A stretch of 64,000 nucleotides of DNA, taken from the NCBI GenBank assembly GCA_903923815.1, contig CAIXZC010000084.1, positions 37,350 through 101,349 of the forward strand, read 5' to 3'. The notes beneath the pieces are model-generated. The model searched no databases and was not told where the DNA came from. It saw only the letters and a program-made list of their open reading frames with translations. Both the position numbers and the translations under genes were made by a program. Below, piece after piece: positions 20,811 to 64,000 of the stretch. The first letter of the stretch is position 1. Each line of letters opens with the position of its first letter. This DNA is from an uncultured Myxococcales bacterium. Lineage in GTDB: Bacteria; Myxococcota_A; UBA9042; CAIXZC01.

Positions 20811-20982
20811 CTTCTTTACCCCGAAGCTAAGTGCCAGCCCTGCATAATTCCCTGACTCGGCACACAAATCAGGTAGTGCTTTGGGAACACAGGACTTTCG
20901 GTTACTCTAGCCCGAACAATATGTAGGGGCAAACGGTTTGTGGGCCCCATTGGCCGTGGATTTCGAACCCCCAGAGGTCTCC

Positions 20983-28716: not shown

Positions 28717-29053
28717 GCGCACCCTAGAGGGCTCGTATACTCGCAGTTCATGGGATGTGCCGAAATTTGTCACCAAGCTGACAAAAGTTGGTCTTCCCCG
28801 CACTGCTGCTGGCTTGGGGCAACAATGGCTGGCACGAGCAAAGAGGGCTCCGGTGGTTGGGGTGCCCGGTTTCCGAGGTTTCCCTTATGGGTGGCACGGT
28901 ATGTGCAACACATCGAACCGGATTTTTGCGAGTTGGGATTTCAATGCCTGAAGCCGATCGTTCCAAAACAGGGTCGAATGAGTTCCCCGACTGTTCGTAT
29001 ACGCGCGCGCGGGGCGCTCTGCAGAATAACGTTTCCGGTCACAATTTGGATTT

Positions 29054-29079
29054 GTGTCCCCCTTCGTCGCAGGGGACAC
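29054..29079 (+). promoter_or_regulatory. 8-bp perfect stem-loop one nucleotide upstream of the giant gene's Shine-Dalgarno sequence
   Basis: GTGTCCCC (29054..29061) pairs with GGGGACAC (29072..29079) around a 10-nt loop. It is followed by g, AGGAGG (29081..29086), 4 nt, then ATG 29091. No U-tract follows, so it is not an intrinsic terminator. Confidence 0.55.
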
Positions 29080-29090
29080 GAGGAGGTCTC

Positions 29091-41000: not shown

Positions 41001-44000
41001 CCGGACAACGACTGCGCCGAGCCCTGCCAGGCCTGCTCCGGTATCGATCACACCTGTATTCTGGCCGTGGCCGGTAGCGACCCCAACGCCGACTGCACCC
41101 AGTCCGAGCCCGGCACCTGCGGCCTGGACGGCAACTGCGACGGCACGGGTCTGTGCCAGTACTGGGCCAGCACCACCGAGTGCCGTCCCGCGTCCTGCGT
41201 CAATGGCTTGCTGACCCAGGCCTCTACCTGCCCCGGCGAAGGCGCCTCCTGCCCCACCGGTGAGGAAGTCTCCTGCGGCAACTACCGCTGCGATGGCACC
41301 TCCGCCTGCAAGACCGCCTGCGATACCGACGCGGACTGCCTCGGCGGCGCCTACTGCCGCACCGATACCCACGAGTGTGTCGCCAAGCTCTCCATCGGCG
41401 AGGACTGCGGCGAAAACGCCCAGTGCGCCTCCGGGTTCTGCGCCGACGGCGTCTGCTGCGAGACCTCCTGCGACGGCGGCTGCCGTTCCTGCAACCTGCC
41501 CGACTCCGTGGGCGTCTGCACCTTCTTCGGCACGGGCACCGACCCCGACGTGGACTGCGAGTCCTGCCAGGTCTGCAATGGCGCCGGCCTCTGTGTCGCC
41601 GCTGCCAACAACACCGACCCCAAGGACGAGTGCGCTGCCGGCGCCGGCGAGTGCGGCCTGTCCGGCTTCTGCAACGGTGCCTCCACCTGCGGTTACTGGG
41701 GCAATGACCACAACTGTGGCGCGACCTCCTGCGCCGCGGACGTGTTCACGCCCTTTGGCAAGTGCGACGGCGAGGGCAACTGCGCCGCCTCCCAGCCCGA
41801 GCCCTGCGTGGCCTTCAAGTGCAACGACGGCGGCACCTCCTGCCGCACCGTGTGCACCACCAACGACCAGTGCCAGACGGGCTTCTGGTGCAACAGCTTG
41901 GGCAAGTGCGTCTCCAGCATGCCCAACGGTACCCCGTGCAACCCGGCGGTCCCCGCCGAGTGCGACTCCGGCTACTGCGTGAACGGGTTCTGCTGCGACG
42001 GCACCTGCGCCTCCACCTGCAAGACCTGCAACCAGAACTGGTCCACCACGGGCACCATCGCCATCGACGGCAACCTGGCCGACTGGGGCAGCACCAAGAA
42101 GCTTGGCACTGGCTCCAACGCCGTGGGTTACTACATCACCTTTGATGCTGACTACATCTACCTGGCCTGGGACGGCGTGAACCTCTCCGCCGACAAGGTC
42201 TTTGTGGCCTTTGACATCGACGCCCTCAAGGCCGGCGACTCCGGCGTGGGCGGCTCCTCCAACGCCAAGGGCGGCGCCTACTTCACGGGTCTGCGCAAGC
42301 CCGAATACCTGGTTGCCTTCAACAAGACCGTAAGCGGCGGCGTCATCAACCTCTACGCCGAATCCGCCACCACCCCCGGCACCTGGGACTTCGCCCAGAA
42401 CATGTCCGGCTGGTCCAACTTCCCCGGCTACGACTCCACCCACAAGGTGAACGAGCTGCGCATTCCCAAGTCCGCCCTGCCGGGCCTCTCCACCACCTCT
42501 GGTATGGGTGTGTGGATGTGGGTGAACAACGCCGCCGAGACCAACGTCTGGTCCATCTGGCCCAACACCAACACCGCTGGGGCCGCCCCCATTGCCATGG
42601 CCAATGCTCAGTTCTTCATCGCTGGTCAGGGTATGTGTCAGTTCGTGCACAACGACAGCGACCCCGACTTCGAGTGTGGCCTGTGCAAGGTCTGCAACGG
42701 CAGCGGCGCCTGCAAGTTCGTCGCCAATGACGTGGTTGATCCCAAGGGTCAGTGCACCCAGTCGACTCCCGACACCTGCGCCACGAACGGCCGCTGCAAC
42801 GGTTCTGGCATCTGCTCCCTGTGGAGCCCCGAGACCGTCTGCATCCCCATCTCCTGCGTGGACGACAAGACCGTCACCAAGGTCTCCTTCTGCACCGGCG
42901 CCGGTGACTGCACCTCCAACGGCACCGAGGAATGCGCCGACGGCTTCAAGTGCAAGAATGGCGCCTGCCTCGTGATGTGCACCACCAACGACGACTGCCA
43001 GACCGGCCGCTACTGCGACGGCACCGCCTGCCAGCTCTCCAAGGACAACGGCCAGACCTGCTCCACCTCTGCCGAGTGCTCCTCTGGCAACTGCGTGGAC
43101 GGCTACTGCTGCGACAGCGCCTGCAACGGCACCTGCGAAGCCTGCAACGTCAGCGGCAGCGCCGGTACCTGCACGGCTCACGCCGCCAGCACGGACCCCG
43201 ACAACGACTGCATCGCCTGCCTCGTGTGCAATGGCTCGGGCGGGTGTGTCAACGTCCCGGATGGTGACGATCCCGTTGACGATTGCCAGCTTTCCGAAGC
43301 CGGCACCTGTGGCCTGAACGGCGTCTGCAACGGCACGGGCACCTGCTCCTTCTGGCCCGCCACCCAGGTTTGTGCTGCCGCCTCCTGCGGCGTGGCCTCC
43401 GACGGTCTCCACTACGAGGCCAAGGCCCAGCGCTCCTGCAGCGGCGCCGGCGCTTGCGCCGCCGTGACCCCCTCCTCCTGCGGCGCCTACCGCTGCAGCA
43501 AGGTCAACGGTGAGACCCACCTGTGCGGCACCGCCTGCACCGCCGCCACCGACTGCGTGGCCGGCTTCTACTGCGACGCCACCTCCAAGTGCGTGGCCAA
43601 GTCCGCTGTGGGTACCGCCTGCACCACGGGCGATTCCTGCATGAGCGGCTACTGCACCGACGGTTACTGCTGCGACAAGTCCTGCAACGGCCCCTGCGTT
43701 GCCTGCAACCTGGCCGGCAAGAACGGTACCTGCACCGCCCTCGAGAACGGCTTCGATAGCAAGACCGCCCCCGAGTGCCCCATCTGCCAGGTGTGCAACG
43801 GCACCGACGGCTGCCGCGCTGTGGTGGCCGGTCTGGCCGATCCCAAGCAGTACTGCTCCATTGAAGATCCCTGCGGGTTCAGCGGCCTGTGCGATGGCGC
43901 CGGCGGCTGTGGCAAGTACGGTCCCGAAACCTCCTGTGGTACGGGTGCCTCTGCCTGCCGCATCGAGAGCGGTATCCACACCCTGTACCCGAAGGAGCAC

Positions 44001-44375: not shown

Positions 44376-47300
44376 ACGCCTCGGCGGGCTCCGACTTCCA
44401 CGGCGAATGCGACGCTGACCCCGACATCTGCGGCAAGGACGGCAACTGCAACGGCGTCGGCGCCTGCCGCTACGCCCCCAACACCACCGTCTGCATTCCC
44501 CAGTCCTGCGATGACTACACCTTGCAGCACCAGAGCCTGTGTGACGGCCAGGGTGCCTGCATTGACGCGGGCGCCGAAGTCTGCCCCAACCACTTCTCCT
44601 GCAACACCGAGACGGGCGCCTGCAAGACGGGCTGCACCGTGAAGGAAGACTGCGCGGGCGACTTCTACTGCGAAGGCAACACCTGCATCGTCCAGCGCGC
44701 CAACGGCCAGACCTGCGGTGCCAACGCCGAGTGCGCCTCCGGCTTCTGCGTTGATGGCTACTGCTGCAACGCCGCCTGCGATGGCTCCTGCCAGACCTGC
44801 GGTGTTCACGCGCCCACCCCCGGTACCTGCGCCTACGTGGCGGTCAACGCCGACCCCGAGAACGAGTGCGGCAACTGTGGCGCCTGCAACGCGGCCCACG
44901 CGTGTGTGCTGGTTCCCGCCGGTCAGGACCCCGTCAGCGATTGCACCGCCGACGCCATGTCCACCTGTGGTCTGGACGGCCAGTGCGATGGCGCTGGTGT
45001 CTGCCGCAAGTGGTCTGCCATCACTGTTTGCATGGCCAAGTACTGCTCTCAGGGTGTGCAGCACAATGACAGCCTCTGCAATGGCAACGGCACCTGCCAG
45101 ACCGGCTCCGAGACGGCCTGCGATCCCTACGCCTGCGACGCGGCCGCCGTGGCCTGCCAGACCTCTTGCGACGAAGACGCCGACTGCATCGGTACCCACC
45201 GCTGCGTGGGCGGCGCCTGCGTGGCCAGGGCCTCCCTGGGCAACGCCTGCACCGAGGACACCGACTGCATCTCCGGCCAGTGCGCCGATGGCGTCTGCTG
45301 CGACCTGCCCTGCGAAGGCACCTGCGCCAGCTGCAACGTGGCCGGCCTCGAAGGCATCTGCACCTTCCATACCAAGGACACCGATCCCCAGACCCCGGCC
45401 GAGTGCGGCCTCTGCCAGGCCTGCTCCGGCGTGGGCACCTGCGTCGCCCAGACCAAGGGCAAGGACGCCAAGAATCAATGCGAGCCTTCCGCTGAGGCCT
45501 CCTGTGGCCTGAACGGCTTCTGCAACGGCGCCTCTGCCTGCGATTACTGGGGCCTCACCACCCAGTGCAGCGATCCCGCCTGCACCGGCACCACCCACAA
45601 CCCCGCCGAGTTCTGCAACGGCACGGGCCAGTGCGTGCCCAAGCTCGAGACGGATTGCTGCCCCTACGAGTGCGGCACCAACGGCAACTGCCGGACCACC
45701 TGCGACCAGGATCACCCCTGCTGCAACGGCGTGGCCTGCGAGGGCGGCATCTGCATCGCCGAGAAGACTGACGGCGAAAGCTGCAACGCCGGTGGCGAGT
45801 GCACCTCGGGCTTCTGCGTTGACGGCATCTGCTGCAACGAGGCCTGCGACGGCGAGTGCCGGACCTGCAACCTGAACCCCGCGACTCGCGGTACCTGCTC
45901 GAACCACGTCGATGACACTGACCCCGACTTCGAGTGCGGCTCCTGCCGCGTCTGCAACGGCAACGGCTTCTGCAAGAACGAAAGCGCCGGCGCCGACGTC
46001 AAGGACCTGTGCGTGGCCTCCGACGATCTGCTCGAACCCTGCGGCAACTCCGGTGTTTGCACCGGCACCGGTACCTGCGCCAAGCGCGGCGTGGACACGG
46101 TCTGCCGTCCCGAAAGCTGCGTCAACCACACTTACGCCCAGCCCGCCTTCTGCGACGGCGACGGCGCCTGCGTGATCCCCACCCCCGCCTCTGCGGATTG
46201 CACCGAGACTGTCTGCGACCAGAACAACGCCAACTGCGTTGACCAGAAGTACAACTGCAGCCTCAGCAACAAGTGCCTCACTGCCTGTGTTGGGTCCGGT
46301 GACTGCCAGAGCACCCACTACTGCCTTGGCAATGCCTGCATTCCCAAGAAGGCTGTTGGTACCACCTGCCAGGCCAACTCTGAGTGCTCCAGCAACTTCT
46401 GCGTTGACGGCTACTGCTGCAACCGCGCCTGCGACAGCACCTGCGAAGTGTGTGATGCGGACGGCAGCCACGGCGTGTGCACGCTGGTGGCCGCTGGGCT
46501 GGATCCCAAGGCCGATTGCTCGTTCTGCCAGGCCTGCACCGGTACGTCCAACTCCTGCGCCATGGTGGCGGCCGGCAACGACCCCAAGAACGACTGCGCT
46601 CCCACCGCCGCCTCCACCTGCAGCTTCAGCGGCGAGTGCGATGGCGCCGGTATCTGCCAGTTGTGGCCCTCCGACACCGTCTGCGCTCCCCAGACCTGCG
46701 TTGACGGCTACCTCTACCAGCCCTCCACCTGCGACGGCGTCGGCGGCACCTGCCCCGAGCAGGTCCAGCAGTTCTGCGGTGGCTACGCCTGCGACGGCAC
46801 CGAGTGCTTCACCGAGTGCACCACCAACGACAACTGCTTCGGCGGTTACTGGTGCTCCATCCCCGAAGGCCAGACCGTCGGTTCCTGCATCAACAAGGTC
46901 AACAACGGCTTTGTCTGCGGCAACAACGACCAGTGCCTCTCCGGCAACTGCGTGGACGGTGTGTGCTGCGACGCTCCCTGCGACGGCACCTGCCAGGCCT
47001 GCGACGTGACCGGCCAGATCGGCCACTGCTACCCCGTGCCCAACGACCAGGATCCGGACCTCGAGTGCGGCGAGTGCCACGTCTGCTCCGGCGGCGGCGA
47101 GTGCAAGCCCTCTACCGACGGCACCGACCTCAAGAACCAGTGCGCTTCCTCCGATCCTCTCACCTGCGGCACCGTCGGTTCCTGCAAGGCCGGCGTCTGC
47201 GAGAAGTGGGGCGCCACGACCATCTGCGCCAACCTGGGCTGCAGTGGCTCCCTCATTGATCCGATCAACACCTGCGACGGCAACGGCGTGTGCATCGACG

Positions 47301-50300
47301 CGGGCCCGGCCCAGCCCTGCCCGAACAACCTGAAGTGCGCCAACGCCACCTCCTGCTTGGCCGTCTGCAGCGCGTCTACCGATTGCCAGACTGGCTTCTA
47401 CTGCATGGGCACCGCCTGTGTGGCCAAGAAGAACGACGGCGAGACCTGCACCGCGTCTCAGTTCGGCAACAACGAATGCCTCTCCGGCAACTGCGTGGAC
47501 GGCGTCTGCTGCAACACCCCCTGCAACGGCGAGTGCCAGTCCTGTGGCATCCTGGGTCACGAGGGCGCCTGCTCCAACATCGATGGCGGCATTGACCCCG
47601 ACCTCGAGTGCGACCCCTGCATGGCCTGCTTCGGCAACGCCTCCTGCGAGAACGTCCCGGCGGGCGAAGACGCCCCCACCGGTGACTGCCTCGCCGAGCT
47701 GCCCGCCACCTGCGCCAACAACGGCAAGTGCGACGGCGCTGGCGCCTGCCAGAACTACGTGGCCGGCACCATCTGCGTCGGCCAGACCTGCGACGCCGCC
47801 ACCGGCACCCTGTACTTGGCCGAGACCTGCGACGGCGATGCCACCTGCAGCACCCTCTCCGCGACGGAAAGCTGCTGCCCGTTCAAGTGCTCTGGCGACG
47901 TCTGCGACACCTTCTGTGTGGACGCCTCCGAGTGCTGCGCCGGGGCCTTCTGCTCCCTGGGCTCCTGCGTGTGGAAGCTGGTCGACGGCGACACCTGCAC
48001 CGAGGCTTCCCAGTGCGCCTCCGGCAACTGCGTGGACGGCTTCTGCTGCGAAAGCTCCTGCAACGGTATCTGCGAGAACTGCAGTGCGGTTCCCGGCACC
48101 TGCGCCGCGGACCTTGACAACACCGACCCCTCCAACTCCTGCACCGACGCCTGCAAGGTGTGCGACGGCGCCAAGGCCTGCCGTAACGTGGATGCTGACC
48201 AGGATCCCACCGACGACTGCACGGTCCAGGCCGAGTCCTCCTGCGGCACCACGGGCGTGTGCAGCGGCACCGGCTCCTGCGCTCTCTACGCCAATGGCAC
48301 CTCCTGCTCGCCCGAGGCCTGCGACACCACCGAGTACAACGCCGAGCGCTTCTGCAACGGCACTTGGTCCTGCGTGCCCGGCTTTGTGGATGACTGCTGC
48401 CCCTACTCCTGCAACTCCGTGGCCAAGGCCTGCCGCGCTGCGGGCACCTGCTCTCAGGACTCGCACTGCTGCGCCGCGTTCTACTGCGACGTGGAGTCCG
48501 GCAACTGTGTGGATCGTTCCGCCAACGGCACCCCCTGCCTGGCCGACAACCAGTGCCTGACCAACCAGTGCGTCGACGGCGTCTGCTGCGATACCGGCTG
48601 CGACCGCGAGTGCGAGAACTGCGCTGTGACCGGTCACGTCGGTACCTGCTACCCCTACGACAACAACACCGACCCCGAGAAGGAATGCACCGCCACGTGC
48701 TCCGTCTGCAACGGTACCTCTGCCTGCAAGTTTGTGGAGCCCGGCTCCGATCCCGAGAGCGACTGCGCTGAAGACCTGGTCAATGGCTGCGGCCAGACCG
48801 GCGAATGCGGCGAGAACGGCGCTTGCCAGTTCCAGGCCACGACGATCAACTGCGGCGACGGCCCGTCCTGCGCCGACCACACCTTCCTGCCCCAGGACCA
48901 GTGCACCGGCACCGGCTCCTGCGAGGACAAGGCTGCCGTGGATTGCTGCCCGTTCCTCTGCGACGGCGTCGGTCCCGACAAGTTCTGCCGTACCTCCTGC
49001 GCCAACCACACCGAGTGCTGCACCACTGGTTACTGCAAGGACACTCAGTGCCACAACAAGGAGACCAACGGCACCACCTGCGGCTCCAACGACGAATGCG
49101 CCTCCGGCTTCTGCGTGGACGGCGTCTGCTGCAACACCGCCTGCACCAATGCCTGCGAAAGCTGCACCCAGGACACCTTCGTGGGTACCTGCAAGCCCTT
49201 CGCCTACGGCACCTACGACAAGGACTACTGCGGTCTGTGCAAGTTCTGCGGCGGCTTCAGCAACTGCGTGAACGTGCCCTTCGGTGAGGATCCCCGCGAG
49301 GACTGCATCCAGGACGCGGCGGGCTGCGGCAACAACGGTACCTGCGACGGCACCGGCAAGTGCTCCATCTGGGCCCCCACCCACGTGTGCAACGCCCAGT
49401 CCTGCGACACGGATACCAACATCCAGTACTACACCGACTACTGCTCCGGTGACGGCGTCTGCAACGATGCCGGCTCCAAGTCCTGCTGCCCCTACAAGTG
49501 CACCGGCAATGCCTGCCGCGACACCTGCTACACGGCGGATGACTGCTGTGGCGGCGCCTTCTGCATCAGCGGCGCTTGCACGGTCAAGTTCCCCGACGGC
49601 CACACCTGCTCCAAGTCCACGGACTGCTTCTCGGGCTTCTGCACCGACGGCGTCTGCTGTGAGGCCGCCTGCGACGGGACCTGCGAGTCCTGCAACGTGG
49701 CGGGCTTCGTTGGCTCCTGCGTGGGCCACGGCGACACCACCGACCCCGACAACGAGTGCGGCGCCTGCGCCTACTGCTTCGGCGGCTCGTGCCAGAACAT
49801 CACCGCTGGGGTTGACCCCCTCGACGAGTGCTCCGAAGGTCCCAAGTGCAACGCCTCCGACGGCCTCTGCGACGGTAACGGCGCCTGCACCGCCCTGTGG
49901 CCTGCCGACACCATCTGCCACGAGCAGACCTGCTCCGGCAACAAGGTCTACGCTGCGGACAAGTGCAACGCCTCCGGCGCCTGCATCGACTCCGGCGTGG
50001 CCACCTGCCCGGGCGGCTTCATGTGCGAGGACGACACCAAGTGCCGCACGGCCTGCGATGACGACGCCCACTGCTCCGGCGGTTACTTCTGCAACGCGGC
50101 CAAGATCTGCGAAGTCCAGAAGACTCTTGGCGCCACCTGCGACGCCGCCTCCGGCCTCAGCGAATGCCTGCCCGGCTACTACTGCGTGGACGGCGTCTGC
50201 TGCTCCAATCCCTGCGACGGCTTCTGCATGGAGTGCAACACCAACGGTATTTGCACCTTCGTGGCCAACAACAACGACCCGACCAACGAGTGCCTGAACG

Positions 50301-51720
50301 CCTGCGAGACCTGCAACGGCGTCGGCTCCTGCAAGCTGGTCCAGGCCGGCCTGGATCCCAACAACGACTGCGAAGACACGGCCCCCGAGGGCTGCGGCCA
50401 GGACGGCGCCTGCGGTGGCGACGGCACCTGCACCTTCTGGAACAACGAGACCCCCTGCGGCGACGCTGCTTCCTGCACGGGTGCCACCTTCTTCCCGCAG
50501 GACCTCTGCGACGGCGCGGGCAACTGCGTCGACACCGAGGCTACTGACTGCAACGGCTACAAGTGCTCTTCGGACACCGAGTGCCGTACCGCCTGCTCGG
50601 ACAGCGCCGACTGCGACGACGTCCACTTCTGCGAGTCCTCCGTCTGCGTGCCCAAGCTGGACAACGGGGCGACCTGCTCCTTCGCCGACTACGGCAATGC
50701 CCAGTGCAGCTCGGGCTTCTGCGTGGATGGCGTCTGCTGCGACGTCGCCTGCGACGCGACCTGCGCCGGCTGCGCCCTTGAGGGCAGCGTTGGTACCTGC
50801 GCCAACTACGCCGCCATTGACCCCGACAACGAGTGCCAGGCCTGCTTCGTCTGCAACGGCGCCAACGTGTGCGCTGAAGAAGTGGCCGGGTCCGACCTCA
50901 AGGCCTCCTGCGCTCCCTCCGACCCCAGCACCAATCCCTGTGGCCTCAGCGGCGAGTGCGATGGCGCCGGTTCCTGCGCCCTGCGCACCGGCAACGTTTG
51001 CCAGGCTGCCACCTGCCTTGACGGCATCGCCTACCCCGAGTCCCTGTGCGATGGCGCTGGCAACTGCGTCGAGAACGGCACCCAGTCCGCCTGCGACCCC
51101 TACGTCTGCAGCTCTGGCTCGGAATGCCGCACCGCCTGCTCCGATGACACCCACTGCATCAGTGGCTTCACCTGCATCGCCCAGACCTGTACGGACCTCA
51201 AGGACAACGGCGAGTCCTGTGCCGATGGCTCCGAGTGCTTCACGGGCTTCTGCGTCGACGGCTACTGCTGCGACACCGATTGCGCTGGCAACTGCCAGGC
51301 CTGTGACATCTCCGGTGCCGTGGGTACCTGCTCCTTCTACGTCAATGACGATCCCTTCAACGAGTGCGCCATGTGCCAGGTCTGCAACGGCGCTGGCGAG
51401 TGCGCCAACCAGCTGGACGGCGAAGACATCAAGGGCGACTGCGGTGACTACCCCTGCGAGCAGGAGACCTGCAACGGCACGGGCGCCTGCCACCAGTGGC
51501 CCGAGAACACCGTCTGTGGCGGCACCCAGACCTGCTCCGATGAGACCCTGCACTACGCCTACCTGTGCAACCTCATGAACGAGTGCCTGGACGGCGGCTA
51601 TGCCTCCTGCTGCCCCTACAACTGCTCCGGCGACAACTGTGGCACCACCTGCGGTGGCCTGGACGCCGACAACTGCTGCGACACCGCTCTGTGCAAGGAA
51701 AGCGCCACCTGCGAAAACTG
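39150..51720 (+). repeat. Twenty-two tandem ~180-aa Cys modules with the core C.SG.C.DG.CC...C.G.C..C
   Basis: Core motifs start at 39201, 39765, 40332, 40878, 41421, 41958, 43074, 43635, 44198, 44726, 45264, 45797, 46382, 46931, 47474, 48011, 48551, 49094, 49622, 50162, 50702 and 51233. The period is 528-585 nt, apart from one 1116-nt unit that carries an insertion. Confidence 0.85.
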
Positions 51721-54700
51721 CACCGTCACCGCTCAGGGCCAGTTCTGCCCCACCGGTAGCTGGTGCTGCGCTGGCGACACCTGCGACAACGCCATCTGGA
51801 TCGAGGACGTGCTGGGCACCCAGAACTTCCTGAGCTCCACCTTCGGCGCCTCCGATGCCTTCAACTTTGACGGCTCCGGCAGCGGCGCCCCCGACCGAAT
51901 CTTCCGCATCACCCTGGGCGACACGCCTCGCAAGATGGTTGCCATGGCCAAGGGCTTCGACTCCCTGGTCTACGTGGTGGAAGAGAAGGGCGGCTGCAAC
52001 GACGGCACCAGGCTCAGCTTCAACGACTCGGGCTGTGGCCTCGACGAGGGCGGCGCCTGTGTGGAGGACGTGCTCCTGCGCCCCTACAAGACCTACTCCA
52101 TCATCGTCGACGGCAACTTTGCCACCGGCGCCGACTTCGAACTTGAGGTCACCCTCAGCACCGCCTGCGGCGTGCCCTGCTCGGCCGACGTGACCTGCTG
52201 CCTCGACGTCCTCATGTGCCAGGACGGGGCCCTGTGCCACGGCTGCGTCAGCACCTCTCCTTGCCCGGACGGCGAGTGGTGCTGCGGCGGCGACGACTGC
52301 GACAACCCCATCGTCCTTGATGCCAACGTCGGCACCATGAACTACAACGGCTCCACCTACGGCGCCGTGGATGCCTTCTGGCACGAGATCTACGGCTACG
52401 GCGTCGGCGCTCCCGACCGCGTCTACCGCTTGAACGTCGGCGAGTACCAGATGAACGCCACGGTCAAGTTGGAGGCCAAGAACGGCTTCGACTCCGTGAT
52501 GTACGTCCGCCAGGATCAGGGCGGCGGCTGCGCCACCGGTCCCTTCGTGGCCGAGGACGACAACTGCGCCCACTACAACCTGGGCAACGGCTCCTGCTTC
52601 AAGGACCTGGTCCTCGAGGCCAACACCGGCTACGACCTCATCGTCGACGGCAACGGCGCCGGCGTGAAGGGCGACTTCAAGATGACCGTCTCCCTCGCCC
52701 ACATCTGTGGCGATGGCGTCTGCCAGGACGACGAGAACTGCAACGCCTGCCCCAGCGACTGCGGCGACTGCTGCGGCAACACCGCCTGCGAGCCCGAGTA
52801 CGGCGAGGACTGCCTCGAGTGCCAGAACGACTGCGGCGAGTGCATCCCCGTTTACACGGCCATTCCCTACACCACCGGCTTCGAGAACGCCGAGCTCGAC
52901 GAGTTCTGGCGTAAGCACAGCTCCAACACCTACGGTCGCGTGGAAGTCTCCACCGAGTTCGACCCCCACGGCGATGCGTTCCACCTGATCATGACCACCA
53001 CCGAGAACGGTCAGGACGTCATGAATGACGCCCGTCTCTTCTTGAACCTGGAAGGCCAGAACAACGTCGAGATGTCCTTCTGGTGGAACAAGTTCAACGA
53101 TGACGACAACGAAGAGGACGGCCTCTTCCTGTCCAACGACGGCGGCTCCACCTGGGTGAAGGCCATGTCCCTCACCAGCTCCATCAATTACTGGCAGCAG
53201 ATCACCGTTGACCTGGACCAGTTGGCCACCGACAACGGCCTGTCGCTGAACTCCACCTTCGCCGTGAAGTTCCAGCAGTACGACAACTTCATGCTGCCCG
53301 ACAACGGCTTCGCCTTCGACGACCTTGCAGTGTACCCCGTCGCCAACTTCGCCAAGCTGCCCTACGAGACCAGCTTCGAAGACGGCGTGCTTGATCCCTA
53401 CTGGGCCAGCGAGTCCAACAACACCTACGGCCGCATCCGGGTCATCGAGACCAACGGTCCCCACAGCGGCATCAAGCACCTGACCATGGACACCAACACC
53501 AATGGCAAGTACGCCATCAACGAGTCCACCCTCCACCTGGACCTGGACGGCCAGTGGAACGTGGAACTGCGCGTCTGGTGGAAGGAGTTCAGCGACGAGA
53601 CCCACAACCTGGACGGCATCTACTTCTCCGACAACGGTGGCCAGTCCTACGTGAAGGTCTTTGACCTGGCGAACAACGCCAACCAGTGGCAGGAGATCGT
53701 CCTTGATGTGGACGCCCTCTCCGACCTGTACGGCCTGACCCTGAACGGCACCTTCGTGGTGAAGTTCCAACAGTACGACGACCTGACCATGGTGTCCGAC
53801 GGTATGGCCTTCGACGACGTGTCCGTGAAGGCCGTCGCCGAGTACGCCACCCTGCCGTACTCCACCGGCTTCGAGACCGGCCTGTTCGACAACTCCTGGA
53901 TTCGCACCCAGTCCGGCGGCCGCAGCGCCATCACCTCCGAGAACGGCCCCCACACTGGCAACTTCCACGTCACCATGGACAAGGCTGACTGCGACGGCAC
54001 CGGCCTCGCCGCCAACAAGCTGCACCTCAACCTGTCCGGCCTCTCCGCAGTCCAGATGGGCTTCTGGTGGAAGCAGATCAATGACGACATCGAGGATGAC
54101 GACGGCGTCTTCCTGTCGAACGACGGTGGTAACTCCTTCACCAAGATCCTGAACATCGTTGGCGCTAGCAACGACACCTGGTACTACAAGACCATCGACC
54201 TCGACGAGGCCGCTGCGGCCGTGGGCCTCAGCCTCAACGAGACCACCGTGGTCATGTTCCAGCACTCCGGCACCTGCCCCATCGCCGATGACGGCTGGGC
54301 GGTGGACGACGTCAGCGTCTTCGAAGGCCCCGTTTACACCACCCTGCCCTACGTTCAGGGCTTTGAGACCGGCGAAGTTGATACCTCTTGGAAGTTCACC
54401 GACCAGAACTCCAGCCACAACTTCATCACCGCCAACTACGGCGCACAGGAAGGCTCCTGGGCCCTGTACCAGGACGTCCCCACCTGCGACGGCAACCCCT
54501 CCACCAACGAGGCGCTGCTGCACCTCAACCTGTCCTCCTACGAGAACGTCGATCTGTCGTTCTACTGGGTGCAGTACACCAACGGTGGCGGTGCCTCTGA
54601 CAACGCCCTGTACCTGTCCACTGACTCCGGCAACAGCTACGTCCGCGTGATGGATCTGAACACCGGCGACAACGGCACCTGGAACCAGGTCGAGCTTGAC

Positions 54701-57700
54701 CTGGATAACGTGGCCCGCGCCAACGGCACGACGCTCACCGACGGCGTCGTCCTCAAGTTCTCCCACACCGGCGCCTGCAACTGGGGCAGCGAAGGCTTCG
54801 GTATCGACAACATCTTCGTGGTCAAGGGCCAGAACTACGCGACCCTGCCCTACGAGACCAGCTTCGAAGAAGGCGCCTTCGACACCTACTGGACCACCGA
54901 AGTGTCCGCTGAGGGCCGCATCACCGTCAGCGACGCGAACAACCCCCACGGCGGCTCCTACCACGTGGTCATGGACTCCAAGTCCTCCATCACCTACGAG
55001 ACCGTCTCGATGAACCTCTACCTGGATCTGGAGAACCAGCGCGATGTGGTCCTCAAGTTCTGGTGGAAGGAATTCAACGACGAGTTCAACACCGAGGATG
55101 GCCTCTACATCTCCTCTGACGCTGGCAAGACCTTCGTCAAGGTCATGGATCTCAAGGATGGCGCCAATGGCGTCTGGAAGCAGTACTGGGTCGACCTCGA
55201 CAAGCTGGCCACCCAGAACGGCCTCAACATGGTCCAGAAGTTCGTCGTGAAGTTCCAGCAGAAGGGCAACGGTCCTGCGGTCACCGACGGCATGGGCTTC
55301 GACGATATCTCCGTGGCCGTTCAGCCCTTCGTGGCGCCGCCCTACAGCCAGGACTTTGAGGCCGGCGTGTTCGACGAATACTGGAGCTTCACCTCCAGCA
55401 CCGGCTTCGGCCGCTCCTCCATCACCAACCAGTACGTGCCTCAGGGTGGCGTGCGTCACATGACCTTGGATGTGTCCGGCTGCTCCGCTGCCTACATGTC
55501 CGTGAACGAGGCCGTGGTGTACCTTGACCTGTCCGCGGGTCGCGGCGTCGACCTCTCCTTCTGGTGGAAGGAGTTCAACGACGAGGACCACGCCGAAGAC
55601 GGTGTGTACATCTCCGACGACGGCGGTCTCACCTGGACCAAGGTCCTGGGCCTCACTGGCTCCACCTACAACATCTGGGCTCAGTACACCCTGGATCTGC
55701 TTGATCTGGCCAACCAGAACAACCTGGTCCTCAACAACCGCTTCGCCGTGAAGTTCCAGCAGAAGGACGACTGCTCCATCGCCGGCGGCGACGGTATGGC
55801 CTTCGACACCATCACCGTGTACGAGAAGCAGGCCTACGCCAAGCTGCCCTACGAGACCAGCTTTGAGGAAGGCGTCTACGACTTCTACTGGACCGGCAGC
55901 CCCAGCAACTGCGCTTCCGAGATCAACACCAACGACGCCGTCGACGGCAGCTACCAGGTCAAGCTGGTGTGCCCCGACGACCAGACCGACAACGTGTCCT
56001 ACTCGGACCTGTACCTGGACCTGAACGGCGAGTCCTGGGCCTCCCTCAGCTTCTGGTGGAAGAACCTGGGCAATGCCAGCTTCGATACCGAAGACGGCGT
56101 GTTCATGTCCAATGACGGCGGCGCCAACTTCACCCGCATCATGGGCTTCGACGGCGGCGACGCCGGCACTTGGTACTACCAGGCCATCGACCTGACCATT
56201 GTCTCCTGGCAGTACGGTCTGTGGTTCAACAGCCAGGTGGTGATCCGCTTCCAGTACAAGGGCATCGGCCCCGGCGACCAGGCCGGCTTCGGCCTGGACA
56301 AGCTGGCGGTCACTCGTGGCCCCGACTACGCCACCATCCCCTACACCAACTCCTTCGAGGACGGCTACCTCGACACCGATTGGACCGTCCGGAACGACGA
56401 CGGCGGCCGCGCCCGCATCGTGGTTGACGCTGGCAACACCGGCACCAACTACCTGCTGTTGGACAACGCCACCTGCACTGGTGCCAGCACCATGGCCGAG
56501 GCTGTGGTCCACATCAACGCGTCCAGCATCCTCTCCAACGCCGAGTTCAACTTCTATTGGAAGAACTTCGGTGACGAGGAAGATGCCCAGGATGGCGTGT
56601 ACTTCTCCTCTGACTACGGCAACAGCTGGGTCAAGGTCTACGACTTCCTCGGCGGCGTCCCCGCCGACTGGACCTACGTCTCCCTGGATATGGACGCCCT
56701 GGCCATGGCCTACGGCCTGAGCCTCAACGAAGGGTTCGCCGTCAAGTTCACCCAGGCTGACGACTGCAACGTGGCCGGCGAAGATGGCATCGCCATCGAC
56801 GACATCGAGGTCAAGCAGGTCCAGCCCTACACGACCATCCCCTACACCCAGAACTTCGAGTCCGGCTCCTTCGACCAGTACTGGGCGGACATGAGCACCA
56901 ACTCCGGCCGCATCGCCATCCGCAGCAGCTGGACGCCGCGCAACAGCTACCACCTGACCATGGACAACGGCTCCAACGGTGGGGCCCTCTCCGTCAACCA
57001 GGCCCGTCTGCACGTCAACCTCGAGAACGAGACCGACGTGGTCCTGTCCTTCTACTGGAAGGAGTGGTCCGACGACAACCACGCCAACGTGGACGGTGTG
57101 TTCATCTCCGACGACGGCGGCACCACCTTCGTGCGCCTCGTGGACCTGGCCATCGACGGCACCGCGGACTACTACTACAAGTTCACCATCGACCTGGACG
57201 CCGCCGTTGCGGCTGCCGGTCTCACCATGAGCAACACCTTCGTCATCAAGTTCCAGCAGACCGGCAACTACGCCTACAGCAGCGACGGCTTTGCCTTTGA
57301 CGACATCACCCTGGACCGCCAGACCGCGGCCGAGCTGCCCTACAGCACCGGTTTCGAGTCCACCACCTACGACGCTCCCTGGATGATCTCGACGACCTGG
57401 AACGGCCGCATTGAGAACCGTACTGACGTGACCCCGAAGACCGGTTCTCGGTCGATGTCCTTCGACAACTCCGGGTCCGTGTACGCCCTCAACGAGGCGC
57501 GCCTGCACCTGAACCTGTCCGAGGCCACCAAGGCCACCCTCGAGTTCTGGTGGAGAGAGACCAACGAAGAGCTCCACGTCCAGGACGGCATCTTCCTGTC
57601 CGACAACGGCGGCCGCACCTTCGTGCGCGTCTCCCCGCTGGAGGGCTCTTACAACCAGTGGAACTTCGTCCAGTGGGATCTGGTCACCCTGGCTGCGGCC

Positions 57701-60700
57701 AACGGCCTGACCTTCACGGACCGTTTCGTGGTCAAGTTTGCCCAGTACGGCAACACCTCCTACGCCAACGACGGCTTCCAGTTCGACGACCTGGCCGTCA
57801 AGGCCGGCCCGACCTATACCAAGCTGCCCTACACTCAGACCTTTGAGACGGGCAAGACGGATGCCTACTGGACGAACTTCACGAACAACAAGGCTCGCAT
57901 CCAGGTCACCACGGACAACACCCCCATGGCCGGCTCCTACCACATGGTCATGGACTCCTTCGAGTCCATCGCCGCGGGTAACATCAGCTACGCCGACCTG
58001 CACGTGGACCTCACCGGCGAGTCCGCCGTTGACCTTGACTTCTGGTGGAAGGAAACCAACGACGAGACCGACTCCGACGACGGCGTCTACTTCTCCGCCG
58101 ACGGTGGCCTCACCTTCATCAAGGCCTTCGACCTCAAGGACGGCGCTGCCAGCACCTGGATCCACAAGGTCATGTCCATCTCTGACTTCGTTGCGGCCAA
58201 CGCCCAACTCGAGATGAACGAGACCTTCGTCATCCGGTTCCAGAACAAGAACAACAACACCTTCGGTAACGACGGCATTGCCTTCGACAACGTCATCGTC
58301 ACCCAGGGCGTCGCCTACGCCGTGCCGCCTTACGCTCAGGACTTCAACGGCGCCAGCCTGGACAACTACTGGCGGACCTCCTCCACAGAGAAGGGCCGCA
58401 TCACCCTCAACGCCAACTACGACCGCTCCACCGTGTGGACCGAAACCCTGGTCTACTCGGACAACGGCGACAACGGCTCCGGCTGGTCCAACGCCCGCAT
58501 CAACTGGAACGGCTGCTACTACGGCTCGTCCACGGTCCACGGCTCCTACTGGAACGACGTCCGCGAGGACGCCTACACCGTGAACCTGGCCTCCTACCCG
58601 CACAGCCGCGTCAGGGTCACCCTGACCTACTGGGCCTCCGAGACCTGGGATCAGAGTGAAGGCGACTACGCCTCCTTCGCCCTGGACAGCACCGAACTGT
58701 GGCGCCAGTACCGCGCCAGCTCGGGCAACTGCACGGGCTTTGGCACCGACTACGGCTCAAGTGGCCAGAACTGCGCCTGGAGCAACTGGGTCAACTGCCG
58801 CTACGAGCTGGATGTCACCGGCGACCACACCGCCAGCAACGCCACCATCCGCGTCCGCGGTTGGATGAACGGTGGCTACTCTGACGAGCGCTGGGCCTTT
58901 GACAACGTCCGCGTCTACGCCGTCAACAAGACCGGCGGCGAGGGCAACGCCCTCACCATGGACTCCATGACCTCCGGCACCGCGGGCACCAACGAAGCCC
59001 GCCTGCACCTGAACCTGGCCGGCGCCACCAACAGCGTGTTGAGCGTCTGGTGGAAGGAATTCAACGACCAGGACAACACCGAAGACGGCATCTGGTTCTC
59101 CAACGACGGTGGCGCGACCTTCACCGAGGTCATGCACCTCAACGGTACGCTTTACACCAACAACACCTGGACGAAGATCTCCATTGATCTGCTGCAGGCC
59201 GCCAAGTCCATTGGCAAGACCCTGACGAACAAGGTCGTGATCAAGCTGCAGCAGCGTGACACCGACCTTATCGCCTCCCGCGGCTTCGCCTTCGACGACC
59301 TCAGCATCTCCGAGCAGGCCTACACGGCCATTCCCTACTCCATCGGCTTTGACTCCTCCTCCTTTGACCAGTACTGGTCGTACTGGTCCACCGGTAAGGG
59401 TCGCGTGTGGTTCACCAACAGCTACAGCCCCATGGGCTCGCAGCAGGCCATGATGGATACCTACGCCAGCATGGACTCCACCAACAGCATGGATCTGCAC
59501 GTCAAGCTGGCCGGCGAGACTGCTGCCTACCTGTCCTTCTGGTGGAAGGAATTCAACGACGAGACCCACTCCGAAGACGGCGTGTACTTCTCCAACGACG
59601 GTGGCGCCACCTTCAAGAAGATCTACAACCTCCAGGACGGCAGCAACCAGGTCTGGTACTTCTACCGCCTGAACCTGGTCACCCTGGCCACCGCTCAGGG
59701 GCTGACCTTCACCGACAACTCCATCGTCCGCTTCCAGCAGCGCGGCACCGAGCCCGTGGCCAACGACGGCTTCTCCATCGACGACGTCCGCGTCATGGGC
59801 GCCCCGACCTACGCCACGTTGCCCTACACCACCGGCTTCGAGACCGGCATGGTGGACAACTCCTGGATCACCGAATCCACCGAAACGGGCCGCGTCCTGG
59901 TGACCAACCAGAACACTCCCCACGCGGGCACCTACCACATGACCATGGACCGCGCTGATGCCCCCGGCAGCACCGCTGTCAACCAGGCCAAGCTGCACCT
60001 GAACCTGCAGGACGAGACCAAGGTTCTGCTGTCCTGCTGGTGGACGGAATACAACGACGACACCGATACGAATGACGGCCTCTACATCTCCGACAACGGC
60101 GGTACGACCTTCACCAAGGTTCTGGACCTCAAGGACTGGGACACCACCTGGAAGATCTACACCGTCGACCTCGTGACCGTGGCCGCCGCGGCTGGCAAGA
60201 CCCTGTCTGACAAGTTCGTGGTCAAGTGGCAGGAAGGTGCCAACCACTACATCAGCAACGACGGCTTCGCCCTGGACGACATCTCCGTCCTGCGCGCGCC
60301 CGAGTATGGCACGCTGCCCTACTACACCGGCTTTGAGACCGGCAACTTCGACGGCAAGTGGACGGTGTCCAGCTCCAACCGTGGACGCGTCCAGATCCAG
60401 ACCGCTTCGGCCCCCGTTGCCGGCAGCTACCACCTGACCATGGACTGCCGCGAGGCCGGTTACCCGTCTCTGGCGGAGGCCAGCCTGCACCTCAACTTCG
60501 AAGGCCAGTCCAACATTGAGTTGGCCTTCTGGTGGCGCGAATTCAACGATGAGGTCAACATCCAGGACGGCCTGTGGCTGTCCAACGATGGCGGCGCCAG
60601 CTTCGCCAAGATCAAGAGCTTCACCAACAACTCCAACGTGTGGGAACACGTGGTCATCGACCTCGACGCCCTGGCCACCAAGGCCGGCATCTCCTACACC

Positions 60701-63700
60701 GACACCATGGTCATCAAGTTCCAGTACTACGGTGACCACTACCTCGAGAACGACGGCCTCGCCTTCGACGAAGTCAACGTCAAGGCCGACGTGGACGTCG
60801 ACTACGCCACCGTGTCCTACACCCAGGACTTCAACACGGGCGAACTGGACTCCTACTGGAAGACCTTTGGCACCAATGGTTCTCGCGTCCAGATCACCAC
60901 GGCCAACGGGCCCCAGGAGGGCACGCACCACCTGACCTTCGACAAGGCGACCTACAACGGCACCTACGGCTTCGCCGAGGCCCTGCTGCACCTGAACCTG
61001 AAGAACAAGACCTCCGTGAAGGTCACCTTCTGGATGCGCGAATGGGACGACGGCGACCAGAACTACGACGGCATCTACCTGTCCAATGACGGCGGCGCGA
61101 CGTGGACCCCGAACCGCGTGGTCTCCCTGAACCGCACCAACACCTGGACCAAGTACGCCTTCGACCCCATCGGCCTGGCCACTGCTGCCGGCCTGACCGT
61201 CACCGATCGCATGGTGGTCAAGTTCCAGCAGTACGACATGTACCCCATCACCACCGATGGTATCGCCATCGACGACGTGCGTCTCATTGACCAGCCCCAC
61301 CTGGTCCCGCCCTATACCCAGGGCTTTGAGACCACCTTCCCTGACGAGTACTGGAACACCCAGTCCCTGGATTACGGCCGTGTCTACGTCAAGGGCGACC
61401 CCCACGACGGTAGCTACAGCCTCTGCATGGACTCCACGTCCAACGGCAGCTACGGCACGAACGCCGTCATCCTGTACCTGGACCTGTCCAGCTACGCCAG
61501 CAGTCCCAAGCTGCGGCTGTCCTTCTGGTTCCGCGAGTTTGACAACGACGACACCACGGACGGTCTGTACTTCTCCGACGATGATGGCCAGACCTGGTCT
61601 GCCCGCGTCGACGCCATGAACTCCGGTACCGGCTGGGTCAAGAAGTCCTTCTACCTGAAGACTGCTGCTGCCTCCGCTGGCAAGGCGATGAACAACACCT
61701 TCGCCATCAAGATCCAGCAGTACGACAACTACACCTGGTCCTCTCGCGGCTTCGACATCGACACCGTCGAGCTGGTCGAGGACGCCTACGCCAAGCTGCC
61801 CTACGCCTGGCCCTTCGAGACCATGTCTTGGGACCAGTACTGGGAGCTCTACCAGACCGGCGCCCACCGGACCTACCTGTCCACCGACCGCTGGACCGCC
61901 AATGGCCCCAACGGTTCCCAGTCCGACTCGTCGCCGCGCGTCTACCAGGGCAGCTACTTCCTGGTCATGGACTCCAACGAGCCCAACAACGGCTCCGGCA
62001 ACGACCCCGGCGAAGGCCAGTTGAAGTTGCGCCTTGACCTGTCCACGGAAGAAGGCGCTGTCACGATGAAGTTCGCCTTCAAGCACTACCTGGACAGCTA
62101 CGACGACGCCTACGACGGCATCTGGATCTCTGACAACGCCGGCGCCACCTGGGCCAAGGTCGACTGGTTGAACCGCGACCTGTGGGACAACAACATCCGT
62201 TGGTGGGAGAAGAACCTGGACCTCGCCGCCCTGGCCACGTCCAACGGCCTCAATCCCAAGTCCTCGGCCTTCGTCGTCAAGTTCGGCCACTACTCCGTGA
62301 ACCCCGCCTACGGCGACTCTCTGCCCCAGGGCGGTTCCCACGGCGACGGCTGGCGTGACGGTTACGCCTTCGACGACCTCAAGATCCGTGGCTACGCCGC
62401 CACCTACTCGACGCTGCCCTACGCGACCTCCTTCGAGGCCGGCTACCCGAACGAGTGGAACTACAAGTCCACCGGCGCTGGCCGCATCCGCTTCGACGGC
62501 ACGGGCGGTCCCTACTCCGGCTCCTACAACCTGGTCATGGACGGTAACCCGGACAGCACGGCTTACCTGAACGACGCCCGCGTCCACCTGAACATGTCCG
62601 GCCTCACCGTGGCCAGCGACACCGTCATGGTCGAGTTCTACTGGAAGGAGTTCAACGAGGCTACGGACACCGAAGACGGCGTGTACGTCTCCGTGGACGG
62701 CGGCACGAACTTCACCAAGGCCATCGACCTCAAGGACGGCGCGAACAACACCTGGACGAAGAAGTCCTTCAACCTCAAGGACGTCCTCGTGGCAGCCAGC
62801 CTCGAGTACTCCAACAAGGTGGTCATCAAGTTCCAGCAGAAGGGTGACCGCACCTACGCCAATGGCGGCTTCGCGATTGACAATGTCTTCGTCTACCGCA
62901 AGCCCCTCTACACCACTCAGCCCTACAGCTTCGGCTTTGAGACCGGCAACTACGACGCCTACTGGCGCTACGAGACCACCGGCTTTGGCCGCGCCCGTAT
63001 CGACAGCGGCAACAGCCCCCGTACCGGCAGCTACCAGCTGCTGCTGGACAGCTCCAGCGGTTCGGCCATCTCCTCCGCCATCCTCTACCTGAACCTCGAG
63101 AACGAGACCAGCTCGTTGCTGCGCTTCTGGTGGCGGTCCTGGTCCGATTCGGACTCCTCCAATGACGGTATCTACATCTCCAACGATGACGGTGCCAGCT
63201 GGGTGCGCATCTACTGGTTGCGTCCCAACTACTACGAAGACCAGAACTGGATGCACTTCACCTTGGACCTCAAGGCCCTCGCCGCGGCCCAGGGCAAGAC
63301 GCTCACCAGCACCTTCCTGGTCAAGTTCCAGTGGGAAGACTCGGGCGCCGTCGGCAGCTACGCCTTCGCCTTCGACGATATCGAAGTCAAGGCCGAGATG
63401 CCCTACGCCACGCTGCCCTACTCGATGAACTTCGAGAACTCCGGCAAGACCGACCAGTACTGGTCGCACTACGGCGACAACGAGTCCGGCTACTACGCCC
63501 GCACCAAGTTCTGGAGCGGCAACTGCTACAGCGGTTGGTGCCTCATGTGGGACCGCTACCCGGGCAGTGGCTACGGCAAGAACGAAGCCAGACTGCACCT
63601 GAACCTGGCGGGCGAGACCAGCCCCATCCTGTCCTTCTGGCAGATCCAGTGGAACGAGGACTTTGACACCACCGACGGCCTCTACATGTCCGTTGACGGT

Positions 63701-64000
63701 GGCACCAACTTCTACCGCATCTACTCCATGAACATGCAGGACCAGTCCTGGCGCTTCATCCGCTTGAACCTGGCGGACTCCGCGGCGCTGTACGGCCTGA
63801 CGCTCAGCGACAAGACCGTCCTCAAGTGGGTCCAGTACGACAACGAGAGCTACTCCAGCGACGGCTTCACCATCGACGAGTTGAACGTCACCAAGACGAA
63901 CAACTACGTGGCGCCTTCCTACACCCAGTCCTTCGACAACTCCTACATTGACCAGTACTGGACGGTCGCCTCCACCTACGAAGGCCGTTCCCAGGCCTGG
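44018..64000 (+). CDS. Giant Cys-rich modular protein, downstream reading-frame segment (3' partial, continues beyond the window)
   Basis: This phase is open from 43760 to the window end: no listed plus-strand ORF after 43759 is in this phase. The translation continues the module exactly (CVYSEPTTCGGYKCNFAGTNCETVC...ECASGFCVDGYCC...). All 22 LPY-type module starts between 52862 and 63914 are in this phase. That gives 6,661 codons without a stop. Confidence 0.88.
52862..64000 (+). repeat. At least 22 tandem ~165-aa Cys-poor jelly-roll-like modules, each with an Asp-box-like S.DGG.T[FW] motif (array continues off-window)
   Basis: Module starts ([LIP]PY...FE) are at 52862, 53357, 53852, 54344, 54845, 55337, 55844, 56336, 56837, 57335, 57824, 58325, 59330, 59819, 60314, 60812, 61307, 61796, 62414, 62918, 63413 and 63914. 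The period is mostly 489-507 nt. Confidence 0.85.

Follow-up and report, generated by a model that had tools for sequence, protein, structure and literature searches.

What are the tandem modules that close this locus, and what do they build? The locus lies on contig CAIXZC010000084.1 of an uncultured Myxococcales bacterium, of which we analysed a stretch of 64,000 nucleotides (nt), hereafter the window (G+C content of 61-71%). Positions 52862-64000 encode a long array of Cys-poor modules of about 165 amino acids (aa), described by an earlier sequence-only reading as at least 22 copies of an unassigned family, each with a motif resembling the Asp-box. We find that the module represents a widespread yet uncurated Asp-box jelly-roll family, and that its array here, encoded by one of the larger bacterial genes, is of record length. 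The module resembles the extracellular jelly-rolls of the MAM and reelin type, yet appears to belong to neither family. On balance, the array is probably the distal rod or adhesin part of a giant protein that is secreted or exposed at the cell surface. Giant surface proteins of bacteria that consist of tandem beta-sandwich repeats are in themselves already familiar, and no new mechanism is implied.

The array lies in a plus-strand open reading frame (ORF B) that opens at 43865 and continues unbroken through the window end (6,712 codons). Over 52862-63997, the G+C content at third codon positions (GC3) of this frame is 0.914, compared with 0.52 and 0.42 at the first and second positions. Because of this GC3, we consider it the coding frame, and the long minus-strand ORFs opposite (43667-58756 and 58760-64000) were rejected as genes, being shadows of the plus-strand gene. 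A phmmer search with a single module returned 21 full copies, a split copy and a truncated last copy, while a profile search placed the start of the first copy exactly at 52862 and found no module copies upstream of it. When one module of a protein from an unrelated member of the Bacteroidota (P0002, WP_346754726.1) was used as the query, all 21 complete copies were detected with scores of 43-152 bits, whereas 20 residue shuffles of the region scored no more than 0.8 bits. Altogether, 21 modules are complete, and of a further one (module 22) the first ~29 aa (63911-63997) are present before the window edge interrupts it at 64000. This agrees with the count of the earlier reading and with its view that the array is still running at the edge.

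The consensus in the sequence-only reading matches that of our MAFFT alignment of the modules. The tight period of 489-507 nt that it reported holds for 19 of the 21 copies (163-169 aa), the exceptions being module 12 (335 aa or 1005 nt, with a 158-aa insert) and module 18 (204 aa or 612 nt, with two loop insertions). The Asp-box-like pattern S-x-[DN]-x-G-x-x-[WFY] is present in every complete module, and its strict form S-x-D-x-G-x-[TS]-[WFY] in about 15 of them. Cys makes up 15.2% of the residues upstream but 0.5% of those in the array, and 12 of the 21 modules are free of Cys. Six modules (3, 4, 6, 7, 8 and 21) have exactly two Cys each; in at least four of these, the Cys occupy matching loop positions, one after the conserved Asp44 and the other just before the DG149 motif. 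Judged from these positions, the two residues may form an optional disulfide.

A jelly-roll beta-sandwich is the confident prediction for the module. The AlphaFold2 model of a single module (module 5), obtained with a 20-module alignment, has a predicted local distance difference test score (pLDDT) of 92.1 and a predicted template modelling score (pTM) of 0.89. It consists of 11 strands and one short helix, with the Asp-box motif (model residues 90-97) forming the hairpin between strands 86-90 and 98-102. In a Foldseek search of the PDB, the top template modelling scores (TM-scores) were obtained for reelin repeat 3 (2ddu; 0.70, root-mean-square deviation 3.2 Å), enteropeptidase chains (8h3s, 0.69; 8zi4, 0.66), the MAM domains of LAST-MAM (8a28) and neuropilin-1 (5l73) (0.65 each), and carbohydrate-binding module (CBM) 70 (4d0q; 0.62). 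The best E-values (8e-6 to 5e-5) were those of beta-sandwich CBMs, with CBM70 (4d0q) and CBM22 first. Since the only matches of two module profiles among PDB sequences were the Asp-box hairpins of GH74 and sortilin propellers, no family member has a solved structure. The sequence-only reading had pointed to a jelly-roll of the MAM or choice-of-anchor J type; the confident model and the presence of MAM domains and reelin sub-repeats among its best structural matches bear this out, although the profile scores remain below the per-domain cut-offs.

The same reading had proposed a two-module structure prediction followed by a Foldseek search. The resulting model is confident as well (pLDDT 89.4, pTM 0.83, linker pLDDT ~94); in the MAFFT alignment used for it, some rows slipped by one module, but each query module was still covered. 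Its best Foldseek matches were reelin two-sub-repeat structures (E=1.7e-12, TM-scores of 0.42-0.45), and tandem CBM22 was also among the top structural matches. Because this model is confident throughout, including the linker, it argues for a junction between neighbouring modules that is fixed rather than a free hinge.

The sequence profiles lead to the same part of fold space. As the term "unassigned family" had anticipated, no Pfam or NCBIfam model claims the module at curated thresholds, and its homologues are named after their other domains. In the alignment to the Pfam MAM model (PF00629), positions 17-152 of its 158 are covered, but the highest score of a single module is 23.7 bits (E=4.7e-5) compared with a gathering score of 26.4, and matches at E<=0.1 were found in three of 20 modules. 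Summed over a seven-module segment, the score rises to 50.4 bits (E=2.8e-13), which supports remote homology to MAM, not membership. A significant profile match to a characterised family, which would speak against the unassigned status, was thus found only marginally. In addition to a length of ~160-170 aa and the predicted jelly-roll fold (TM-scores of 0.65-0.69), the module shares with MAM domains the order of conserved blocks (FE…W, L.F.W, W…V.L, F.V.F, DG.A.DD[IV]), acidic residues spaced like those of the neuropilin-1 (NRP1) Ca2+ site, and an extracellular, adhesive context. To our knowledge, MAM domains lack an Asp-box, unlike the present module, and we know of no MAM arrays of 20 or more copies. 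The module also differs in having no counterpart of the four characteristic disulfide cysteines (most copies being Cys-free, and six having two Cys in loops); in MAM domains, four conserved cysteines form two intramolecular disulfides (PMC5104691).

The likeness to reelin extends to the Asp-box and the tandem arrangement. Reelin sub-repeats are jelly-rolls of similar size with a single surface Asp-box (2ddu, 2e26, 5b4x), and both kinds of domain occur in long tandem arrays, that of reelin forming a rod (PMC2716378). The Pfam model Reelin_subrepeat-B (PF21471) gives a co-linear alignment that starts at the Asp-box and ends in the C-terminal strand (profile positions 61-126), with summed scores of 25.7, 23.6 and 28.3 bits on multi-module segments (gathering score 27). 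Per module, it matches four of 20 copies with a best E-value of 0.0051. A homologue from our database search (P0042) scores 31.8 bits against the same model, though no single stretch of it passes. These sequence scores are marginal (23-28 bits summed, E>=0.005 per module), and there are further differences. Reelin is a metazoan signalling protein built of A-EGF-B triplets, with EGF between the sub-repeats, whereas the modules of this bacterial protein abut one another through linkers of 5-8 residues and have no EGF. The inter-domain angle also differs, as the pair TM-scores of only 0.42-0.45 indicate. In its sequence pattern and shape, the module therefore stands between MAM domains and reelin sub-repeats. 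Because both reelin sub-repeats and the module are jelly-rolls with the Asp-box in an equivalent hairpin and a co-linear C-terminal half, and both would stack into rods, one could speculate that the bacterial module is a true homologue of the reelin sub-repeat, possibly its prokaryotic source, and that a single superfamily unites MAM, reelin sub-repeats and choice-of-anchor J, with the present array as its largest known deployment; we hold this idea only tentatively. Choice-of-anchor J, a bacterial secreted jelly-roll-type domain of ~160 aa, gives a weak co-linear match (NF038128, over positions 5-139 of 162), and three of 32 modules match it at E<=1 (best E=4.7e-4). The module is not a member, as the score of module 5 is 12.3 bits against a cut-off of 30, and multi-module segments gave no match to this model.

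A database search with a module hidden Markov model, also suggested by the sequence-only reading, demonstrated that the family is not peculiar to this locus. The full HMMER scan of 1.84 billion cluster representatives found 6,747 proteins at E<=1e-3, including 2,395 at E<=1e-10 and 760 at E<=1e-30. The homologues come from Bacteroidota, Planctomycetota and Anaerolineae, and are named 'T9SS type A sorting domain-containing', 'CARDB', 'IPT/TIG', 'endonuclease/exonuclease/phosphatase', 'subtilisin' or 'hypothetical'. For a domain census, we sampled 64 homologues of up to 1,000 aa from the best 150 matches. Half of these (32 of 64) have the C-terminal type IX secretion system (T9SS) sorting domain, and other domains in the sample include C25 or S8 peptidases, endonuclease/exonuclease/phosphatase (EEP) nuclease and PKD; Pfam called MAM in one sampled protein and the reelin sub-repeat in three. 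The module is thus a widespread, uncurated accessory domain of secreted and surface proteins. Our literature searches found no paper describing it. The scores sum over copies, hence many-copy proteins rank first, and among the best matches the copy number does not exceed 12 (in P0001, itself a fragment of the present protein), followed by 11. A word-indexed protein search with the module alignment gave no match, a negative of little weight, as the same search missed P0001 although its collection includes this protein. The array of at least 22 copies is the largest among these best matches, with the limit that metagenomic proteins are often fragments.

The distribution of the family reveals an annotation gap. 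An abundant module of secreted proteins, with matches in 6,747 representative clusters, has no Pfam or NCBIfam model to name it, and as a result thousands of proteins are annotated by their other domains only or as hypothetical. A curated model built from the module alignments would close this gap. The module is also of interest as a structural bridge, since it combines the MAM block order and a putative Ca2+ triad, without the MAM cysteines, with the Asp-box of reelin, and it may clarify how animal extracellular domains are related to bacterial ones. The locus itself is an extreme case, its copy number being roughly double the maximum in the best database matches.

Upstream of the array, ORF B overlaps another plus-strand ORF (ORF A, 28782-44372) in a different frame. 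The pattern of Cys-rich repeats runs on across the junction at 44014-44016 (…EHCDSAGA followed by CVYSEPTTCGGYKCN…), where one base is apparently missing from the DNA (GGTGC-TGCGTC). Judging by this continuity, ORFs A and B are evidently one gene that starts at 29091 and extends beyond 64000, encoding more than 11,600 aa inside the window, with the array at its far end. The apparent frameshift could reflect an assembly or sequencing error, a genuine mutation that inactivates the gene, or a site of recoding. The combined product starts with a signal peptide and a possible lipobox (MRVGHSWLKLVVALGMVTMLAC), followed by Dicty_CTDC-type repeats and P-domains, Cys-rich repeats of ~200 aa, two units of ~190 aa and the module array. 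The segment 29091-44015 (GC3 of 0.88) matches Pfam Dicty_CTDC (1.6e-15) and P_proprotein, the P-domains of proprotein convertases (3e-23). The sequence-only reading had proposed a protein of two chemically different halves; the abrupt Cys switch that it noted is confirmed, but both parts belong to this larger gene with an apparent frameshift near 44015.

A smaller homologue provides the orientation of the array. P0154 (2,135 aa) shares ~30% identity with ORF A along some 800 aa. It contains, in this order, a lipoprotein signal (…FFSAC), Cys-rich DDGNxCTxDxC repeats and five modules, and its stop codon comes 5 residues past the last of these. The stop was confirmed on contig L040 (JGI 3300045650, Ga0486090_35363; positions 26-2602; 67.7% GC), where the P0154 gene is followed by biosynthetic housekeeping genes on the opposite strand. 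Because P0154 ends 5 residues past its last module, the module array forms the extreme C-terminal end, distal to the anchor, in this lineage. By the same token, 52862-64000 is probably the distal, C-terminal part of the giant protein.

Several features of the module suggest how such a distal array might work. In the NRP1 MAM domain, a stabilising Ca2+ is bound via E651, D685, N691 and D796, residues that are conserved in meprin and RPTPmu (PMC5104691). The invariant Glu8 and Asp153 and the near-invariant Asp44 of the module have spacings of 36 and 145 residues, compared with 34 and 145 in NRP1, and by analogy they probably form the same structural Ca2+ site, in which case they would hold one stabilising Ca2+ per module, like MAM. 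The Asp-box of jelly-roll domains is exposed at the surface and supports contacts between domains, and in reelin it contributes to the rod-like superstructure (PMC2716378); we infer by analogy that it would lie at the inter-module interface. The linkers of 5-8 residues and a reelin-like, Asp-box-mediated packing would make the array a semi-rigid rod that projects from the Cys-rich stalk, with a length of ~100 nm if each module adds roughly 4-5 nm. Adhesion to prey, matrix or substratum could rely on many distinct binding surfaces, formed by the variable loops of the diverged modules and in particular by the beta3-beta4 loop with its tolerance of insertions. If so, the end of a >11,600-aa protein in a predatory or social lineage would be a good system for studying how long rigid appendages are built, exported and used.

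The overall build logic would be that of other giant bacterial adhesins. The RTX adhesins, the SprB-type T9SS adhesins and the Big/Ig-repeat adhesins are very large secreted proteins that are anchored at one end and consist of tens of diverged, Ca2+-stabilised tandem beta-sandwich domains. In contrast to these, the present protein repeats a 165-aa jelly-roll instead of an Ig-like domain of ~100 aa, the anchor is apparently an N-terminal signal or lipobox, and the proximal half is extremely rich in Cys. Several observations weigh against a rod or adhesin function. The lipobox is non-canonical (M-L-A-C), the gene carries the apparent frameshift at ~44015, and a contig from another metagenome (L001, see below) has GAG replaced by TAG at window position 60746 (L001 ~5705), inside module 15, which is one of its five non-synonymous changes. 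The C-terminus lies beyond the window and was not recovered; the last 528 aa of the window, used as a query, had no relative in genome or metagenome contig collections, and their matches in the protein database did not exceed 44% identity. Finally, with the best Foldseek E-values going to CBMs, glycan binding is equally compatible with the fold.

The last of these points leads to the main rival of the rod or adhesin reading, namely a multivalent CBM-like lectin array in which each module would bind a glycan and the tandem arrangement would confer avidity for a polysaccharide, for example that of a prey cell wall, an exopolysaccharide, or glycans from algae and plants. The module shares with CBMs (CBM70, CBM22, CBM11, CBM4 and others) the general jelly-roll fold and the tandem occurrence (e.g. 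CBM22-1-CBM22-2). The families with the best Foldseek E-values include the hyaluronan-binding CBM70 as well as CBM22, CBM11, CBM27, CBM4 and CBM16, tandem CBM22 appears again with the two-module model, single modules give weak Pfam matches to CBM_4_9 (E=0.0053 in one module), Mann_GBD_bact and SusE, and the module is an accessory of secreted enzymes in its homologues. However, no CBM family profile is significant, and the TM-scores to CBMs (0.46-0.62) are lower than those to reelin and MAM, which are protein-interaction domains. The partners in the 64 sampled homologues are C25/S8 peptidases, EEP nuclease, and PKD or Ig domains, none of them a glycoside hydrolase or other carbohydrate-active enzyme. 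The conserved aromatic residues are located in predicted strands, which makes a place in the core more probable than a role as a sugar platform. We therefore consider a CBM-like glycan binder possible but rather doubtful. An Asp-box could also suggest the blades of beta-propellers (sialidase, GH74 or Vps10-like) and hence an array of glycosidase-type propellers. The resemblance to the BNR/Asp-box noted in the sequence-only reading is genuine, as Pfam BNR matches a multi-module segment with E=4e-11 and the module profile hits the Asp-box hairpins of GH74 xyloglucanases and sortilin and nothing else in the PDB; weak matches to Sortilin-Vps10 and to the NCBIfam glycosylhydrolase model F510_1955 were also found. 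None of these matches extends beyond the ~20-residue hairpin (profile positions ~83-107), the array has a single Asp-box in every 165 aa compared with many along the matched GH74 chains, and the model is a confident 11-strand sandwich rather than a set of four-stranded blades. With hairpin-only matches and a confident sandwich model, the propeller or glycosidase reading was rejected and retains next to no probability.

Two further explanations question the array itself rather than its function. Misassembly is a classic problem of long tandem arrays, and the sequence-only reading had named an artefactual copy number, by repeat expansion or chimera, as a possible objection. The modules share only 22-45% pairwise aa identity (mean 34%), neighbours being no more alike than others, so an assembly collapse is implausible, and near-identical DNA repeats are absent. 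This divergence also explains why Tandem Repeats Finder, which according to its documentation needs copies of about 70% similarity or more, reported no period of ~495 nt. In addition, contig L001 (5,856 nt; JGI metagenome 3300045651; protein P0001), which comes from a separate assembly, corresponds to window positions 55042-60897 at 99.68% identity without gaps, and is colinear over ~12 modules including the insert-bearing module 12. Given the diverged copies and the colinear independent contig, we rejected an assembly artefact, which we find hardly credible. The other possibility is that the gene is a decaying pseudogene and the array a relic without present function, as the apparent 1-nt frameshift at ~44015 and the stop codon at 60746 in L001 might suggest. 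These two lesions are in different assemblies, however, and single-base errors are common in metagenome assemblies. The frame is open for ~20 kb downstream and 15 kb upstream of the frameshift, GC3 is 0.91, and the structural core is kept in all 21 modules. The 19 differences between L001 and the window comprise 14 synonymous and 5 non-synonymous changes, a split consistent with purifying selection. A pseudogene is thus unlikely.

The coordinates of the array and of the remaining parts of the giant gene are listed in the table below.

Table. Parts of the giant gene and modules of the array, in window coordinates
Feature	Position	Strand	Evidence
N-terminal part of giant gene: signal peptide, Cys-rich Dicty_CTDC-type repeats, P-domains	29091..44015	+	translation, Pfam, GC3 0.88
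Apparent 1-nt deletion (frameshift) joining ORF A (frame 2) to ORF B (frame 1)	44014..44016	+	three-frame translation, DNA
~200-aa Cys-rich repeats, 15% Cys	44016..51664	+	no Pfam family at E<=1e-3
Two ~190-aa units between Cys-rich repeats and array	51665..52861	+	translation; no Pfam/PDB sequence match
Module 1, 165 aa	52862..53356	+	phmmer, profile, P0002 query
Module 2, 165 aa	53357..53851	+	phmmer, profile, P0002 query
Module 3, 164 aa, 2 Cys in loops	53852..54343	+	phmmer, profile, P0002 query
Module 4, 167 aa, 2 Cys	54344..54844	+	phmmer, profile, P0002 query
Module 5, 164 aa; modelled singly; best single-module Pfam MAM match (23.7 bits)	54845..55336	+	AlphaFold2, Pfam
Module 6, 169 aa, 2 Cys; second module of tandem model	55337..55843	+	profile
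Module 7, 164 aa, 2 Cys	55844..56335	+	profile, P0002 query
Module 8, 167 aa, 2 Cys	56336..56836	+	profile, P0002 query
Module 9, 166 aa	56837..57334	+	profile, P0002 query
Module 10, 163 aa	57335..57823	+	profile, P0002 query
Module 11, 167 aa	57824..58324	+	profile, P0002 query
Module 12, 335 aa, split by nested insert	58325..59329	+	profile positions 2-36 at 58328-58432 and 26-161 at 58907-59320
Insert in module 12 beta3-beta4 loop, 158 aa, 4 Cys	58433..58906	+	also in contig L001
Module 13, 163 aa	59330..59818	+	profile, P0002 query
Module 14, 165 aa	59819..60313	+	profile, P0002 query
Module 15, 166 aa	60314..60811	+	profile, P0002 query
Module 16, 165 aa	60812..61306	+	profile, P0002 query
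Module 17, 165 aa	61307..61801	+	profile, P0002 query
Module 18, 204 aa, two loop insertions	61802..62413	+	alignment, profile
Module 19, 168 aa	62414..62917	+	profile, P0002 query
Module 20, 165 aa	62918..63412	+	profile, P0002 query
Module 21, 166 aa, 2 Cys	63413..63910	+	profile, P0002 query
Module 22, first ~29 aa only, cut by window edge	63911..64000	+	phmmer, profile

The insert in module 12 had no match in Pfam, among PDB sequences or in the protein database, the last by a word-indexed search that also missed the ~99% identical P0001. It contains …RVRVTLTYW… and …ERWAFDNVRVYAV, a sequence that suggests another small beta-sandwich. The two ~190-aa units that precede the array share the pattern …GAPDR[IV][FY]R[IL]…Y.[IL]IVDG…. 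The Cys-rich repeats (29500-44000 and 44016-51664) together exceed 7,000 aa with 11-15% Cys; those of the N-terminal part match Dicty_CTDC and, weakly, Dickkopf_N, and no Pfam family reaches E<=1e-3 on the ~200-aa repeats that follow 44016.

The neighbouring genes are chromosomal housekeeping genes, encoding PolA, a SpoU methylase, a radical-SAM enzyme and an FHA-GAF-cyclase. The PolA protein is 84% identical to that of a metagenome-assembled genome labelled 'uncultured Myxococcales bacterium', which points to a Myxococcota-like host. A second giant gene was observed on the minus strand (9438-20867); it encodes a TPR-repeat protein of 3,809 aa with a GC3 of 0.92, and the plus-strand ORFs that overlie it are shadows.

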